Shown: in pieces, positions 1-8,425 of the stretch
Layout: every line of letters starts with the position of its first letter
How positions within the stretch are numbered: position 1 is the stretch's first letter
Program-made: the position numbers and the translations under genes
Source of the DNA: Rhodothermota bacterium
GTDB taxonomy: Bacteria; Hydrogenedentota; Hydrogenedentia; Hydrogenedentales; GCA-2746185
Direction of reading: 5' to 3'
Length of the DNA: 25,439 bases
Assembly: GCA_009885415.1 (NCBI GenBank)
Contig: VFKU01000787.1
Location: 1-25,439, forward strand
The notes under the pieces: generated by a model
What the model was told of the DNA's origin: nothing
What the model saw: the letters and a program-made list of their open reading frames with translations, nothing else
Databases searched by the model: none

Positions 1-53
1 GCGAGTCCTTTGAGGATCGAGCGGCGGGTGATAGTGGGGGATGGGTGGGACAT
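1..53 (-). CDS. 5' end of a probable Tat-exported protein (partial, runs off the left edge)
   Basis: Minus-strand ATG at 53-51, preceded by GGAG, reads MSHPSPTITRRSILKGL. TRRSILK matches the twin-arginine consensus (S/T)RRxFLK. Not in the ORF track because it is truncated. Confidence 0.6.
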   Translation of the reverse strand, partial: MSHPSPTITRRSILKGL

Positions 54-195
54 TCGAAGGTCTCCATGAGTACGAATCGCGGATGGCTTCGACGCCTCGC
101 CCAATTCGTGCTCGTTACAGTGGCTCAAGTTCAAAATCTCGCTTTCTCCACCCCCTCGAACCGTTTGACCAGGGAGCGTAAATTCTCATAAATGA

Positions 196-1167
196 TCACA
201 GGCTAAAAAGGTTATCGGGCACAACAATGACGAGGGATTTATCCGTTTCGACTTCGTTCACTCTACGGTTGTAGCACTCAAGAAAGCTTCTTAGACTTCC
301 ACCAACCGCTTTAGCCGAAAAAAAGGAATTCTCATCCAAATTTGTCGCGACGAAGGCTTCTATTGAGAGCACAGTAACCTTCTCGGGATTCGAATAATCT
401 TCAATCAGCCCGCGAGCCGTGGGAACGCGTTTTTCGGGAACCAAGAGATAAGGGCGTAGACCCGCAACTATATTCTGTTCGCAGCGCTGGCAATGTCCTT
501 GGTTGGGCGCGACCGTTATGTGGAATGCGACGTCATTGAGAACAAAATCGCCGTGTCGACCAAGTTGCTTGTCTGCGGTTGTAACACTCTGGTTCTCAAC
601 TCGAATTTGCGGAAAACTTACTTCGAGTTTCGCGCCGACCATGTGCTGCGCCACCGATCCATCCTTTTTGAAAACTCTGGCGGACGCTAAAATCCGCTGA
701 ATGTTCTCGAATGTACTCAGGGCGGGGTCGAGCGCGACTTCCAGCCGGCGATCGGCGAGCCAATCCTGAACTCTATCGGCGAGAAAACTCTGACACCTTC
801 CGATCAGTTCGAGTCTCTTCGAAACAGCCAGCTTCTCTATCCCAGCGTCACCGAGGAGGCTTAACAATTCCTCGCAATTCGGAATGTTTCCTCGATTAGT
901 CCGGATTCCATCCCCCACGAATTCCTTCTCAATTCCATATCGTTCGTTAAGTAATTTTCTTAGTCGCGCAGGAGACGCACCGGCGATCTGGGTGCCTTTT
1001 TCTGCACGATGACTTTGAATGTTCAGATTGCAGTCATTCCTCAAACGCTCAAGCAAAATGAACGACGATCCAATGGCTCCTCTGGAAGGAAATCCGTCGG
1101 GCTGCAACTGAAGAGCGTTGAACCACTTGGAGAACGCCAGGAAAGTATTTTCGATGGATGGTTTCAA
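196..1167 (-). CDS. DUF4928-like protein, putative restriction endonuclease partner of the adjacent methyltransferase (about 323 aa)
   Basis: Motifs VAQHMVGAKL, ADKQLGRHGDF..FHITVAP, SIEAFVATN and YNRRVNEVETDKSL resemble the DUF4928 family as I recall it. Preferred start is TTG at 1167-1165, overlapping the upstream TGA (TTGA); the track start at 1200 is also a TTG. The endonuclease role is inferred from gene context. Confidence 0.7.
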   Translation of the reverse strand: MKPSIENTFLAFSKWFNALQLQPDGFPSRGAIGSSFILLERLRNDCNLNIQSHRAEKGTQIAGASPARLRKLLNERYGIEKEFVGDGIRTNRGNIPNCEELLSLLGDAGIEKLAVSKRLELIGRCQSFLADRVQDWLADRRLEVALDPALSTFENIQRILASARVFKKDGSVAQHMVGAKLEVSFPQIRVENQSVTTADKQLGRHGDFVLNDVAFHITVAPNQGHCQRCEQNIVAGLRPYLLVPEKRVPTARGLIEDYSNPEKVTVLSIEAFVATNLDENSFFSAKAVGGSLRSFLECYNRRVNEVETDKSLVIVVPDNLFSL

Positions 1168-2783
1168 GAGGCGTATGCAGGCGTGCTGCCCGGGCGACAA
1201 CGTATTAATTCATTTAGGACCGGGTTGAGATAGTACTTCGAAATCCAGTCCACGGCAGGCACGCAGACCGCATCTCCAAATCCAAACAACGCCTGATTCC
1301 CTTTGACAGTAATGCGGAAGTCGCCCGCCCCCATCAGTCTCGCACATTCTCTCGGCGTAAGCAGCCGTGCTTTATAGCGCCCATACCCGGCCTTGAAAAG
1401 AATTTGCCGTGCACTGCCACCTTTGGGGGTGCGAAGACAACCCGCTATGCCGTCGCATCTAAGCTCCGCTGTCGACACACCATTGCGTATTCGACGGAAC
1501 ACGGTTCCATATGCCCAGACTCGTTTCTTCATCATTTCGCATGCGAGCTTCTTGTGCCTTTCACTCATCTGACTAAGGAGATAATCCGCGCGATCCTCCG
1601 ACCACCATTCGGGCGCAGCATCCGGAAAATCTTCCAGAATTTCCTTAAGCTCAATAGACAGAACAGGTGGCGGCGGTAAATCGCGAACACGCCACCTTAT
1701 ATCCGGAGATTGAAAAATAAAATCCGCCAGCACAGCTGGCCGCACAGCGCTCTGGTAGAACAGAGGTTCTTCTGCGACTTGATGGACGACGTCTAAGTTT
1801 TCACGAATGCCAATGACAAATAGTCTTTGTCTGCTCTGGGGCACAAAATTAAGCGCATCGAGAATAAATGCGTCGACTGCATAGCCAAGATCGTTTAGCA
1901 TACGGAGCGCATCGCGAAAGTCGTTGCCATTGTGCGAGCTAAGAAATCCAGGCACGTTTTCTATAAGTACTATAGCGGGTCGTTTCTCCTGCATCAGTCT
2001 TAGACAATTCGTGAAACCCCAGAAAGCAGATGAATGCTTGCCTTGAAGCCCGCGGCGTGCACCAGCCAATGACAAGTCGGTGCAAGGGAACGATGCAGTT
2101 GCTAGTGTTGCAGCGGGAATCTTCGAAGCGTCGAGCGAGTTCACGTCCTCAAGCAAATAGAGACCATTCGCCCCATCATCGAATTGCGCCTCGTACATCT
2201 CCTTTTTTGCCGGATCGATGTCATTTGCAAACACTGTTCGCCAGCCAGATTTTTCCAAACCCATTCTCATTAAACCGATTCCTGCGAAGAATTCCAGTAC
2301 AGTTCTCCCTAGTAGGCGTTCGATTATGTCTCTGGGCACCCTATCTTCTAAGATTGTTCGCTCAACAGTTGTTACGCACTCATCTGCCCGAGCGCGAATA
2401 TCAGCCTCCCAAAATCGCAGGACTTTCCAGCCTTCTAGCAGCAACTGCGAGGTCGATTCGATATCTCGCTCCATATTACGTCGAATCTTGCGTGTCCAGT
2501 AATCCTTGGAAGATGTAGCGGTAAATTGATCCTCAATGCAGGCGAGATCTCGCGTCTGCCATTGAGCACCGTGCCAGAACTCGCCATCAACAAATATCGC
2601 AACTCGATGCTTTGCCAACACCAAATCCGGTTTGCCCGGAAGAGTCCGATCGCAGACACGGAAGCGGAGACCGCGTTTAGATAGTGCGTGCCTAAGCAAT
2701 AGCTCCGGTTCAGTGCCGTCGCTCCTTACGCGCCGCATCCGATCAGAAATCGAAGCCGTGGATTTTAAGGATTTTCGGGCCAT
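1164..2783 (-). CDS. vsr-dcm: Vsr (very-short-patch repair) endonuclease fused to a DNA (cytosine-5) methyltransferase (about 539 aa)
   Basis: N-terminal Vsr motifs: MRRVRSDGTEPE, LPGKPDLV, IFVDGEFWHG, YWTRKIRRNMERD, GWKVLRFWE. C5-MTase motifs: I FFAGIG, IV FPC (SFPCTDLS), VI ENV, VIII QSRQRLF, IX RLLTPRECARLMG, X FGDAV. No stop between the domains. ATG at 2783 is preferred over the track's GTG at 2825. Confidence 0.92.
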   Translation of the reverse strand: MARKSLKSTASISDRMRRVRSDGTEPELLLRHALSKRGLRFRVCDRTLPGKPDLVLAKHRVAIFVDGEFWHGAQWQTRDLACIEDQFTATSSKDYWTRKIRRNMERDIESTSQLLLEGWKVLRFWEADIRARADECVTTVERTILEDRVPRDIIERLLGRTVLEFFAGIGLMRMGLEKSGWRTVFANDIDPAKKEMYEAQFDDGANGLYLLEDVNSLDASKIPAATLATASFPCTDLSLAGARRGLQGKHSSAFWGFTNCLRLMQEKRPAIVLIENVPGFLSSHNGNDFRDALRMLNDLGYAVDAFILDALNFVPQSRQRLFVIGIRENLDVVHQVAEEPLFYQSAVRPAVLADFIFQSPDIRWRVRDLPPPPVLSIELKEILEDFPDAAPEWWSEDRADYLLSQMSERHKKLACEMMKKRVWAYGTVFRRIRNGVSTAELRCDGIAGCLRTPKGGSARQILFKAGYGRYKARLLTPRECARLMGAGDFRITVKGNQALFGFGDAVCVPAVDWISKYYLNPVLNELIRCRPGSTPAYAS

Positions 2784-2810
2784 TCGCAAGGTACTCTGTG
2801 TTTTCAGACA

Positions 2811-2839
2811 AGCATACGGACTCACATTTCTAAGCGCAA
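2811..2839 (-). promoter_or_regulatory. Candidate sigma70 promoter for the vsr-MTase/DUF4928 operon
   Basis: On the minus strand, TTGCGC (2839-2834), a 17-nt spacer and TATGCT (2816-2811); the -10 box ends 27 nt upstream of the ATG at 2783. Confidence 0.45.
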
Positions 2840-2880
2840 GGTGCTAGGACACGACCGGAGGACAACCTCAGGCGCTACCT

Positions 2881-4047
2881 TCAATACGACTTCGGCAGGC
2901 CCATGACGTGTTCGCCGATGAAATTTAGCGCCATTTCTTGCGAGACGGGCGCGATTTTGTAGAGCCGGACCTCGCGCCAGAGCCGCTCGATGTGGTACTC
3001 GCGGGCGTAGCCCATGCCGCCGTGGGTTTGGAGCGAGGCGTCGCAGGCCTCGAAGCCGGCGTCGGCGGCGCGCAGCTTGGCGATGTTCGCTTCCGCGCCG
3101 CAGGCGTGGTTGTGGTCGTAGAGCCACGCGCCGTGCAGCACCATGAGCCACGCGACCTCGAGCTTGCTGTAGGCCTCGGCCAGCGGAAACTGGATGCCTT
3201 GGTTCGCACCGATGGGCCGGCCGAAGACGACGCGCTCCTTCGCGTAGCGCACGCCGAGGTCGAGCGCGGCGCGGCCGATGCCGACCGCTTCCGCGGCGAC
3301 CATGAGCCGCTCGGGGTTGAGCCCGGAAATGAGCTGGTAAAAGCCCTTGCCTTCTTCGCCGACGAGCGCGCTCGCGGGCACGCGGACCTGGTCGAGGAAG
3401 AGTTCGTTCGAGTCCACCGCCGCGCGGCCGAGCTTGTCGATCTCGCGGATGGTGACGCCGGGCAAGGTGAGGTCGACGAGGAAGAGCGACATACCCATCG
3501 TCTTCTTCTCGCACTGCTCGAAGGGCGTCGTGCGCGCGAGGAGCAGCGTCCGGCCCGAGCGCTGCAAATTGCTCGACCAGACTTTCTTGCCCGTGATGAG
3601 GTAGTCGTCGCCGTCGCGCACCGCGCGCGTCGTGATGCGCGAGGTGTCGGTGCCGGCGTCGGGCTCGGTGATGCTGAAGCCGAGGCTGAGTTCGCCCGCG
3701 GCGATTTTCGGGAGGAGATCCTTTTTCTGTTCTTCGCTGCCGTACTTGATCACCGGCATCGGGGGAAAAAACGCGAAGTGTACCGGCGAGGCGCCGGTGG
3801 TGCCTGCGCCGGCCGCGCAGATCTCGTGGAGGACGAGACAGGCTTCCGTGATGCCCAGGCCCGCGCCGCCGTAGGCCTCGGGGATGACGACCCCGAGCCA
3901 GCCTGCGTCGGCCATGGCTTTCAGGAAGGCCTCAGGATAGGTGGCGCTCGCGTCGCGCTCGCGCCAATAGTCCAGCCCGAAGCGGTTGCACAGGGCGCGG
4001 ACTTGTGTGCGGATCGCTTCGTGCTCTTCGCTGAGAGTGAAATTCAT
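2881..4047 (-). CDS. Acyl-CoA dehydrogenase family protein (388 aa)
   Basis: FSITEPDAGTD, ITGKKVWSS, LNPERL, VFGRPIGANQGIQF, LQTHGGMGYAREYHIERLWRE motifs. Confidence 0.93.
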   Translation of the reverse strand: MNFTLSEEHEAIRTQVRALCNRFGLDYWRERDASATYPEAFLKAMADAGWLGVVIPEAYGGAGLGITEACLVLHEICAAGAGTTGASPVHFAFFPPMPVIKYGSEEQKKDLLPKIAAGELSLGFSITEPDAGTDTSRITTRAVRDGDDYLITGKKVWSSNLQRSGRTLLLARTTPFEQCEKKTMGMSLFLVDLTLPGVTIREIDKLGRAAVDSNELFLDQVRVPASALVGEEGKGFYQLISGLNPERLMVAAEAVGIGRAALDLGVRYAKERVVFGRPIGANQGIQFPLAEAYSKLEVAWLMVLHGAWLYDHNHACGAEANIAKLRAADAGFEACDASLQTHGGMGYAREYHIERLWREVRLYKIAPVSQEMALNFIGEHVMGLPKSY

Positions 4048-5631: not shown

Positions 5632-6282
5632 CTACGACGATGCGGGGGCAGGGGCTTTCTTGGCGGGGCCGATGCCGCGGGTGGTGGCGAATTGGGAGAG
5701 GAGGCCGATGATCGAGAGCGCGATCCATGCGCCGATGACCCAGACGCGCTGGTCTTCGGAGCGCATGGCGGCGCGGAAGGGTTCGATGGGGTCGGTGCCG
5801 CCCTCGTAGAAATACACGCCGCAGGCGATGAGCATCCACGCGCCGAGGACGGAGGTGGCGACGAGCATGACCGGCTTCTCGAGGATCATCGCCATGAGTC
5901 CGCCCACCATGCCGATGCCGAAGACGAAGAGCGGGGCCCAGGCGTCGCCGGAATTTCGGAAGATGTGGTCGGCAATGAGTCCGGCGCCGAGCAGGCCCAC
6001 GAGAAAGATGCCGGCGCGGTAGACGAAGAAGAGCGCAAACGCGCCCGAGATGCCGCCGAGGCCGAGGCCGATGAGTGCGGCGGACTGGTTTCCCCGCGTG
6101 ATCCATAGCGCGATGCTCGCGGCGACACCGCCGGCGAGCAGAAAGCCGGTGAGCGCGATGACGAAGCGGAGGGTGCGGTAGCCGAGGAAGCAATACAGCG
6201 TGCCGACGGCGACCGCGGCGGCCATGACGCCGTTGAGCTGGCTCGGAGTGAGCTTGTCGATGTCGAAGCCCCAATCCGGCAC
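5632..6282 (-). CDS. DUF4203 (TM7S3/TMEM198-like) multi-pass membrane protein (about 216 aa)
   Basis: LYCFLGYRTLRFVIALTGFLLAG, Gly-rich TM repeats, ATSVLGA and final GLLSQF pattern. GTG start at 6282 follows an AGGGGG Shine-Dalgarno-like site; the track's N-terminal 69 aa look non-coding. Confidence 0.7.
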   Translation of the reverse strand: MPDWGFDIDKLTPSQLNGVMAAAVAVGTLYCFLGYRTLRFVIALTGFLLAGGVAASIALWITRGNQSAALIGLGLGGISGAFALFFVYRAGIFLVGLLGAGLIADHIFRNSGDAWAPLFVFGIGMVGGLMAMILEKPVMLVATSVLGAWMLIACGVYFYEGGTDPIEPFRAAMRSEDQRVWVIGAWIALSIIGLLSQFATTRGIGPAKKAPAPASS

Positions 6283-6487
6283 GTGCGTATCCCCCTGTTC
6301 CGCCGTGATTGTCGCGCCCGAGAGACGGCAATTCAACCCGGCGGCACGGGCGGCGCGCGAGTTGCCCGCCGACGCGGGAATTTGGCATACTTCCCGCCGC
6401 TGCAACGCACGCATGGCGTCCACTCCGCACCCGTCCCGCGGTCCACGCCGCGCACCATCCACACAGAGGCATTCACGCGCTCGCCCC

Positions 6488-8425
6488 ATGGATCACGCTG
6501 CTGACATCGCGCCCGATCGGCCCTGGTTTCGCCGCTACACGAAGCTCGTCGCGGCGGCGACGCTGTGCCTGATCTTTCTTGGCGGCCAGGTGAAAAGTCA
6601 CGAAGCGGGGCTGGCGGTGCCCGATTGGCCGACGACCTACGGGCAGAACATGTTGCTGTATCCGATCGACCAGTGGGTCGGCGGGATTTTTCATGAGCAT
6701 CTCCACCGTGTCGTCGCCACTTCGCTTGGAGTTCTTTGCATTATTCTCGCCGTGTGGATGGCGCTGGCGGAGCGCCGTCGCTGGGCGCGGTGGCTGGGCG
6801 TGGCCGCGCTGGGCATGGTCATCGTGCAGGGCCTCTTCGGCGGCCTGACGGTGTGGCTGCTCTTGCCTGCGTGGGTCTCGACCACGCACGCGATCCTCGC
6901 GCAAACTTTTCTTCTGCTCACGCTGTTCATCGCGTATTCACAGTCGCGCGAACGCCGCGCGCGCGAGGCGTCCGCCGGCGATTCGGGTTCCTGGCGCGAT
7001 GCGGCGCCCGCGCTGATTGTGCTTGCGCTGGTGTATGTGCAATTGCTCGCCGGCGCGCTGATGCGGCACACGGAATCGGGCTTGGCGATTCCGGACTTCC
7101 CGGCGATGGCCGGCGGGTGGCGGCCGTGGTTCGACGTGAGTTCGGTGGCGTGGGTAAACGCGTGGCGCGCGGATTATGCCTTCGAAACTGGGCAGGCGCT
7201 TGACCCGGTCACGCTCGGACAAATCTGGATCCATTTCACGCATCGCGCGGGCGCGGTGCTTGTTGCGCTTGGCGCGATCTACGCCGCGTGGCGCGCCTGG
7301 GCGCGGCAGGACGAAGCGCCGGCGGTGTTTCGCACGGCCTTCGTGCTCGTTGCGCTGGTCGCGTGTCAGGTTGCGCTCGGCATCGTGACCGTCCTCTCGC
7401 ATAGGATTCCGTTTATCGCGAGTTTGCACTTGGTCATCGGCGCGGCGACGCTTGGTTGCACGGCGTTGCTTGCGCTGCGCGCGATGCCGCTGAGACTTCG
7501 GCGCGCCGCGGCGAACGCGCCCGTCGCGGTGGTTTCTGCGGTCCGCGCGCGTTCGACCTTCGGCGCCTACCTCGAACTGACCAAGCCGCGTATCGCCGTG
7601 ATGGTGCTGGTGACGGCGGCGCTGGGTTACTACTTCAACGCGATTACTTCACGCGAGTTCCCCGGCTGGCTGCAATTTGCGATGGCGATGCTGGGCATCG
7701 CGATGTCCGGCGGCGGGGCCTCGGCGCTGAACCAGTATCTCGAACGCGATGTCGATGCGCGGATGGAACGCACCCGCGGACGGCCCCTGCCTTCAGGCCA
7801 GTTGTCGCCGGCCGCCGCGCTGTACTTTGGCGTTGCGCTCGTGCTCGGCGGCTGCTTCCTGCTGCTGTGGCAGGTCAATTTGCTCGCGGCCTTCCTGACG
7901 CTGCAAAGCGCTTTCTTGTATGTCCTCGTGTACACGCCGATGAAACGGCTGACCTGGTGGAACACGTCGATCGGCGCGGTGCCCGGCGCGATGCCGCCGC
8001 TCATCGGCTGGGCCGCGGCGACCGGCACGCTCGATCTCGGCGCATGGATCTTTTTCGCCGTCCTCTACCTCTGGCAGCACCCACACTTTTTTGCGATTGC
8101 GTGGATGTACCGCGAAGACTACGCGCGCGGCGGGCTCAAGATGCTCCCCGTCGTGCAGCCCGACGGCCGCAACATGTTCGCGCAGGTGATTCTGTTTTCC
8201 GTCGTGCTTATTCCGGTCTCGCTGGCGCCTTGGCTGAGCGCGATGAGCGGGTGGACGTATTTTATCGGGGCGATGCTGCTAGGGCTGATGATGCTCGCGG
8301 CGGGCATCGCGTTTACCGTGACCCATTCGCACCAGGCGGCGCGGCGCGTGCTGCACGTCTCGCTGCTGTATCTCCCCGGCCTCCTGTTGGCCGTGTGGAT
8401 CGACGCCATGATCCGGTTGCCGTAG
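6488..8425 (+). CDS. ctaA-ctaB: Fused heme A synthase (CtaA/COX15) and heme O synthase (CtaB/CyoE) (about 645 aa)
   Basis: CtaA part: AGLAVPDWP, EHLHR, TTHAILA, HFTHR, ASLHL. Ala/Arg-rich linker at about 7490-7555. CtaB part: YLELTKPRI, NQYLERDVDARMERTRGRPL, VYTPMKR, IGAVPGAMPPLIGW, WQHPHFFAIA, DYARGG. Confidence 0.92.
   Translation: MDHAADIAPDRPWFRRYTKLVAAATLCLIFLGGQVKSHEAGLAVPDWPTTYGQNMLLYPIDQWVGGIFHEHLHRVVATSLGVLCIILAVWMALAERRRWARWLGVAALGMVIVQGLFGGLTVWLLLPAWVSTTHAILAQTFLLLTLFIAYSQSRERRAREASAGDSGSWRDAAPALIVLALVYVQLLAGALMRHTESGLAIPDFPAMAGGWRPWFDVSSVAWVNAWRADYAFETGQALDPVTLGQIWIHFTHRAGAVLVALGAIYAAWRAWARQDEAPAVFRTAFVLVALVACQVALGIVTVLSHRIPFIASLHLVIGAATLGCTALLALRAMPLRLRRAAANAPVAVVSAVRARSTFGAYLELTKPRIAVMVLVTAALGYYFNAITSREFPGWLQFAMAMLGIAMSGGGASALNQYLERDVDARMERTRGRPLPSGQLSPAAALYFGVALVLGGCFLLLWQVNLLAAFLTLQSAFLYVLVYTPMKRLTWWNTSIGAVPGAMPPLIGWAAATGTLDLGAWIFFAVLYLWQHPHFFAIAWMYREDYARGGLKMLPVVQPDGRNMFAQVILFSVVLIPVSLAPWLSAMSGWTYFIGAMLLGLMMLAAGIAFTVTHSHQAARRVLHVSLLYLPGLLLAVWIDAMIRLP

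Follow-up and report, generated by a model that had tools for sequence, protein, structure and literature searches.

A DUF4928 gene adjoining a Vsr-cytosine methyltransferase gene very probably encodes the nuclease of a Type II restriction-modification cassette gained by horizontal transfer

What is encoded by the gene that follows a Vsr-methyltransferase gene near one end of this contig? The first-pass annotation read the open reading frame at positions 196..1167 (minus strand) as the cognate nuclease of the methyltransferase and further proposed that the two genes constitute an undescribed defence system. The first of these ideas is very probably right, as indicated by a match to a PADLOC restriction enzyme model, a predicted nuclease fold, near-constant linkage of the family to C5 methyltransferase genes, and the existence of fusion proteins; with high confidence, the frame specifies the endonuclease of a Type II restriction-modification (R-M) cassette that was acquired horizontally. 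The second idea is not supported: the two genes form a Type II R-M module of the standard kind, with Vsr, and the family of the nuclease is widespread and already present in a defence system HMM library.

The window (the whole stretch of DNA analyzed, 25,439 nucleotides) corresponds to one whole contig (25.4 kb) from a metagenome-assembled genome that is 84% complete. The two genes occupy a 2.8-kb island (54..2880), delimited by GC profile and same-genus comparison, with a GC content of about 50% in a genome of 65% GC; along the contig, GC is 0.49 to 0.55 over positions 1 to 2800 and 0.63 to 0.70 beyond. The island contains these two genes only, so the earlier remark that the DUF4928 gene is the sole other gene of the lower-GC cassette was accurate. 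A host gene lies on either side. Positions 1..53 (minus strand) hold the start of a host gene, with a twin-arginine signal in its translation, that runs off the contig; its first 17 codons (53-3) resemble the start of the Tat-signal amine-oxidase-like gene located downstream of the acyl-CoA dehydrogenase gene in the same-genus genome G047. The other flank (2881..4047, minus strand) is a host acyl-CoA dehydrogenase gene, identified by Pfam, with orthologues that are 82 to 94% identical in same-genus genomes.

Similarity to the same-genus genomes ends at 2870-2881, just past the point where the acyl-CoA dehydrogenase frame stops. What occupies the intergenic spot on the downstream side varies within the genus: the R-M island here, an IS630-like transposase gene in G044, and, in G047, a lipocalin gene with the Tat-signal oxidase-like gene after it (L106:879-1487 and L107:2708-3271 are the loci of the variable spot in the latter two genomes). 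The 13 other genomes of the taxonomic family all lack DUF4928, and in the rest of the phylum it occurs in 9 of 121 genomes. Because similarity breaks at the island edge, congeners differ at this spot, and the other genomes of the family lack DUF4928, the island is, on comparative sequence grounds, a recent, strain-specific horizontal insertion at a variable intergenic site. Repeats, promoters, and terminators were looked for at the island boundaries, and nothing above chance was found. The sequence recurs in freshwater sediment metagenomes at a depth of about 3 and in short contigs; one independent metagenome contig bridges positions 28-356, and among the contigs listed none bridges 2867-2881. 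Elsewhere in the window, a 741-codon frame at 6200-8425 (plus strand) contains COX15/CtaA (heme A synthase) and UbiA/CtaB (heme O synthase) domains and, from its sequence, looks like a fused CtaA-CtaB protein.

The extent of the nuclease gene depends on the choice of start codon. Two in-frame TTG codons, at 1200 and 1167, open the minus-strand frame. In an alignment with twelve homologues, a conserved N-terminal Trp is residue 14 in the homologues and would be residue 15 from TTG 1167 or residue 26 from TTG 1200, and TTG 1167 is the better start because the position of the Trp is then closest to that in the homologues. The gene chosen in this way runs from TTG 1167-1165 to a stop at 198-196 and comprises 323 codons plus the stop. 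TTG belongs to a weak class of start codons, which counts against the endonuclease reading, and no Shine-Dalgarno sequence is visible ahead of TTG 1167. The public gene call (P0001) has 240 amino acids and begins at an internal GTG (916-918), which encodes residue 84 of the 323-residue protein. By both homology and structural modelling, that call is too short, as residues 1-83 are conserved in homologues (e.g., Gln60) and are modelled at a pLDDT of >90. An AAGGA sequence of the Shine-Dalgarno type stands ahead of GTG 916-918, which could serve as an internal start; the full-length protein is nevertheless favored by homology and by the modelled structure.

The protein belongs to DUF4928 (Pfam PF16280), which it matches with an E value of 6.8e-64 and 216.5 bits (gathering score, 25 bits); residues 33-314 align with positions 18-305 of the 306 in the profile and thus cover most of the model. 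It also matches PADLOC model PDLC03543 (REase_II, Type II restriction enzyme) with an E value of 6.5e-33 over profile positions 57-322 of 331. The same model is matched by nine further DUF4928 members, with E values of 1e-31 to 1e-164. The match of a homologue on an Enterobacter mori plasmid has an E value of 1.4e-164 over the full model length, and the seed of PDLC03543 must therefore be a close relative of the Enterobacter mori protein. The family is large, with 751 clusters at 50% identity and 561 confirmed genome matches. Pfam and NCBI annotation name it by its DUF label only, and NCBIfam models gave no match to the frame. Single-sequence and profile searches of the PDB returned chance matches only. 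The literature on DUF4928, PF16280, or IPR032285 yielded one incidental mention (PMC9035990), and the searchable literature contained no cleavage activity or target site for any member.

The partner gene (1164..2825, minus strand) encodes a Vsr domain (residues ∼23-142; PF03852, E value of 1e-23) fused to a C5 cytosine methyltransferase (residues ∼175-530; PF00145, E value of 2.3e-49), with matches also to TIGR00632 and TIGR00675. Its frame has 553 codons and starts at GTG 2825 or ATG 2783, and the C5 domain is complete. The nuclease gene adjoins this gene and is co-oriented with it, the arrangement by which a Type II R-M pair is recognized. Reading the sequence directly confirmed the proposed overlap: the 4 nt t-t-g-a at 1164..1167 (minus strand) contain both the TTG with which the endonuclease gene starts (1167-1165) and the TGA that ends the methyltransferase gene (1166-1164). 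Such junctions are the rule where a methyltransferase gene (M) precedes the candidate endonuclease gene (R). All 59 such M>R loci have tight or overlapping junctions, with a candidate R start at −50 to +25 nt relative to the M stop, and 11 of the 59 have the identical 4-nt overlap.

Homologues of the fused Vsr-C5 methyltransferase number in the thousands, are 60 to 67% identical, and occur in many phyla; among the 120 best matches listed, approximately two-thirds are Vsr fused and the remainder are methyltransferase alone. This high sequence conservation suggests a single shared specificity spreading by horizontal transfer.

Does the association extend beyond this contig? The first-pass annotation had pointed to the neighborhoods of DUF4928 homologues as a check on its nuclease proposal, and these proved to be consistent. 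A survey of the 80 best loci, in which each species was represented by a single genome, showed a C5 methyltransferase gene beside DUF4928 in 77 and Vsr as well in 62, leaving 3 loci without an adjacent methyltransferase and 18 without Vsr. A DUF4928 gene directly follows a DNA cytosine methyltransferase gene in all four plasmid records and comes immediately after the Vsr-methyltransferase fusion gene in each of three such loci that were looked up, and three methyltransferase-DUF4928 fusion proteins are present among the representative proteins. The order of the genes varies (where V is Vsr and ∼ is fusion): V∼M>R in 27 loci, M>R>V in 19, M>R in 14, R>M>V in 9, M>V>R in 3, and a few others. Three activities that stay together while their order changes are the hallmark of Type II R-M combined with very-short-patch repair. 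The compact layout of two genes and three activities that the earlier reading described is therefore real in the window, but V∼M>R is merely the commonest of several orders.

Two homologous loci depart from this pattern. In one (L045:3554-5960), the place of the methyltransferase gene between Vsr and DUF4928 is taken by a gene on the opposite strand that encodes a NOV_C/DUF3883 nuclease domain, and the DUF4928 gene is thereby left without an adjacent methylase. In the other (L024:3949-5601), the DUF4928 domain (residues 257-539) ends a 550-codon frame; the N-terminal 250 residues have no Pfam match, and there is no methyltransferase gene within 5 kb. This frame could be an over-long open reading frame in GC-rich DNA or a different fusion.

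These neighborhoods also bear on the proposal that the pair is a new, undescribed defence system rather than conventional R-M. Such a system might be suspected from the DUF name, the only one used by Pfam and NCBI, and from the lack of an NCBIfam match, but PADLOC already models the family as REase_II, and the pair matches a classical Type II R-M operon plus Vsr in the genes present, in their order, and in their coupling. In addition, the trio of Vsr, DUF4928 protein, and C5 methyltransferase was already present, uncommented, on SGI1-related Marinobacter genomic islands in a 2022 study (PMC9035990). We consider novelty of this kind very unlikely.

Structural predictions indicate how a conventional Type II endonuclease could be built from this sequence. 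An AlphaFold2 model, built with a 77-sequence alignment, has a mean pLDDT of 94.7 and a pTM of 0.87 for the whole protein; it is helical throughout the N-terminal half and alpha/beta in the C-terminal half. The helical domain (residues 1-140; 748..1167, minus strand), recognized from secondary structure and conservation, carries a conserved Gln60 and the motif G-R89-T90-x-R92-G and is probably a DNA recognition domain. The C-terminal alpha/beta domain (residues 141-323; 199..747, minus strand), modelled separately with a pLDDT of 95.9, resembles a restriction-endonuclease-like nuclease of the PD-(D/E)XK type. Its elements occur in the order helix, strand, strand, helix, strand, helix, strand, helix, and it has the mixed sheet and flanking helices of the superfamily core fold, with DSSP assigning no first core strand.

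Fold searching, which had been suggested as a check on the nuclease proposal, gave a divided answer. Foldseek against the PDB, with either the whole model or the C-terminal domain, returned nothing at an E value of ≤0.001, and its top rows were unrelated enzymes. VIA-align of the whole protein against 48,161 chains ranked the restriction enzyme EcoT38I first (Z of 9.3, 262 aligned residues), followed by the nuclease domains of BspD6I, AspBHI, MspJI, LlaBIII, N.BspD6I, and FokI, with Bse634I, SgrAI, Cfr10I, AgeI, and NgoMIV among the lower matches. With the C-terminal domain as the query, the top 8 of the 48,161 chains are all nuclease domains of restriction enzymes (Z of 5.9 to 9.2), including those of EcoT38I, BspD6I, MspJI, AspBHI, LlaBIII, FokI, and BstEII. 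Z values of 6 to 9 are moderate by the tool's own caution; nevertheless, the exclusive enrichment for restriction nucleases among the matches of the modelled domain is persuasive.

The conservation of individual residues points to an active site within this fold. The motif segment running from Ala198 to Thr218 lies at 514..576 (minus strand), close to the earlier placement at about 505-575, and includes Asp199, Asp207, His216, and Thr218. Across 77 diverse family sequences, Asp199 and Asp207 are each conserved in 76, His216 is invariant, and Thr218 is present in 74 and replaced by Ser in the other 3. In the model, Asp207 directly precedes strand 208-210, and His216 and Thr218 are at the end of strand 213-217. 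The canonical signature has an Asp where strand 2 begins and (D/E)-x-K on strand 3; the protein has the Asp, as Asp207, and lacks the triad. Conservation and predicted topology thus bear out the initial observation of Asp residues spaced as in a PD-(D/E)xK core with H-x-T in place of (D/E)xK, and they support His216-x-Thr218 as a family-wide variant occupying the expected (D/E)xK position.

A basic residue that might compensate for the missing lysine can be proposed from the same alignment. Residue 228, on the helix after the third core strand (helix 223-234; codon at 484..486, minus strand), is Lys in 58 and Arg in 17 of the 77 sequences (75 in total) and is a candidate relocated catalytic residue; Lys180 (70 of 77) is a candidate alternative source of the positive charge. 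Further conserved positions are Asn232 (72 of 77), Glu270 (67), Asn276 (69), Glu279 (70), Tyr299 (74), Asn300 (77), and Glu307 (73). The window protein is full length and retains all of these residues, with Arg at position 228, where most members have Lys. Relocations of this kind are known in the superfamily: a review (PMC3424549) describes PD-XXK-E in Cfr10I, EPD-XXK in EcoO109I, and a lysine on the second core helix in Pa4535. In the review as read, no His/Thr pair is described for the positions on the third strand.

The same substitution, which leaves the protein without the canonical (D/E)xK lysine, is an argument for a catalytically dead or non-nuclease partner, e.g., a DNA-binding regulator or a specificity factor for the methyltransferase. 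That the searchable literature yielded no published activity and that Foldseek found no significant match in the PDB would also suit such a protein. However, polar residues on the strands of the nuclease fold are invariant or nearly so in the 77 diverse sequences, a pattern like that of an active site, and PADLOC assigns the family to the Type II restriction enzymes. Migrated and substituted catalytic residues are, moreover, well documented for this superfamily (PMC3424549). We therefore regard a dead partner as highly improbable. Least probable is a modification-dependent (Type IV-like) or repair-type nuclease acting with Vsr on methylated or mismatched DNA: the 5mC-dependent enzymes MspJI and AspBHI are among the best fold matches of the nuclease domain and Vsr is usually part of the module, but a methyl-dependent nuclease whose translation is coupled to that of a C5 methyltransferase would be directed against the very cell that makes it, the helical N-terminal domain does not match the N-terminal 5mC recognition parts of MspJI and AspBHI (only their C-terminal nuclease domains are matched), the likeness to MspJI concerns a generic nuclease core common to FokI and BspD6I, and Vsr is missing from loci of the survey far more often than the methyltransferase is.

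If the protein is the endonuclease of a Type II R-M system, the following scheme can be put forward. The C5 methyltransferase would shield host DNA at the target site, and the Vsr domain would mend the T:G mismatches arising from deamination of 5-methylcytosine. The endonuclease would be translated by coupling via the TTGA overlap, i.e., after the methylase and probably in smaller amounts. Its helical N-terminal domain may read the DNA sequence, and its C-terminal domain, with the restriction-endonuclease-like fold, would provide a variant PD-(D/E)XK site in which Asp207, and perhaps Asp199, could bind Mg2+. With His216 and Thr218 at the third-strand (D/E)-x-K positions, positive charge may be contributed by Lys/Arg228 or by Lys180 on the preceding helix. 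Incoming unmethylated DNA would then be cut at the recognition site.

The recognition site was sought in two ways. First, the best PDB match of the methyltransferase is M.HhaI, and specificity cannot be read from it because the match covers the catalytic half only and leaves the target recognition domain outside. Second, palindrome avoidance was analyzed around 63 loci whose methyltransferases are closely related, and no single palindrome stood out in their 420 kb of flanking sequence. In the host genome itself, the most avoided palindromic hexamers are CAGCTG, ACTAGT, CTGCAG, and AAGCTT. CAGCTG occurs 130 times in this genome (G000) against 636 expected and CTGCAG occurs 416 times against 1017, which suggests past or present restriction systems targeting these two sequences; nothing found ties either site to the cassette.

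For annotation, the consequences are practical: DUF4928 genes adjoining C5 methyltransferase genes can be labelled Type II restriction endonucleases, and the public call of 240 residues at this locus should become 323 residues. In enzymology, a single characterized member would fill a gap, as this large family apparently has neither a solved structure nor a published specificity. For this organism, the cassette is a small acquisition that introduces no new defence principle. A broader but tentative idea, which we consider possible rather than probable, is that DUF4928 is a structurally unsolved branch of restriction endonucleases that has the two-domain build of EcoT38I, HaeII, and SacI, a His-x-Thr site, and charge supplied by Lys/Arg228. 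If so, it would represent a catalytic variant so far undescribed for Type II enzymes, possibly with a recognition sequence that is lacking commercially.

Among enzymes of known structure, EcoT38I (PDB 7e8r) is the closest in shape. Its residues 176-351 align with the C-terminal domain over 152 residues (Z of 9.2, rmsd of 4.6), and in both proteins an N-terminal domain is followed by a C-terminal nuclease domain. The two differ in sequence, with 9% identity and no sequence-level match, and the rmsd over the whole protein, 8.5, implies that the domains are oriented differently or that the N-terminal domains are not alike. HaeII is the only significant match among AlphaFold models of Swiss-Prot proteins (E value of 1.7e-3, residues 5-310), and RE_SacI is the next family by shape (TM of 0.47). 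In the language model features of the ESM Atlas, RE_HaeII (PF09554; 0.93) and RE_SacI (PF09566; 0.87) come next after the DUF4928 clusters, and one cluster mixes members of PF16280 and PF09554. Aligned by eye, G-L-D, nine residues, and Q-I-K of HaeII correspond to G-D-F, eight residues, and H-V-T of DUF4928, HaeII keeping the lysine (Q-x-K) where DUF4928 has H-x-T.

Sequence homology to HaeII was considered and rejected, as hhalign against six HaeII family proteins fetched from genomes gave a probability of 0.1%. A Pfam scan of 77 members, at E values of up to 10, likewise gave no link to RE_HaeII or other named restriction enzyme families, and HaeII itself gives no sequence match to EcoT38I. 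With neither an HMM nor a profile-profile match, the likeness to the HaeII family is structural and feature level only, and because the sequence-level link fails, we describe DUF4928 as built like EcoT38I, HaeII, and SacI rather than as a member of any of their families.

A more distant parallel is provided by PD-(D/E)XK nucleases with relocated catalytic residues. In Cfr10I and Bse634I (PD-XXK-E), Pa4535 (PD-EXX-K), and Vsr, the core is kept and part of the triad comes from a neighboring helix, according to the review (PMC3424549). Cfr10I and Bse634I, together with SgrAI, NgoMIV, and AgeI, are among the fold matches of the C-terminal domain (Z of 5.0 to 5.6). DUF4928 resembles these nucleases in its restriction-endonuclease-like core, with putative catalytic roles for His216 and Lys/Arg228. 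The closest counterparts of the cassette as a whole are the known Type II R-M operons that combine a C5 methyltransferase, Vsr, and DUF4928. The window shares with them the protein family, the PADLOC model, the partners, and the tight coupling of M to R, whereas its nuclease differs in its TTG start, in the Arg at position 228, and in its identity of only 30 to 55% to the other members found.
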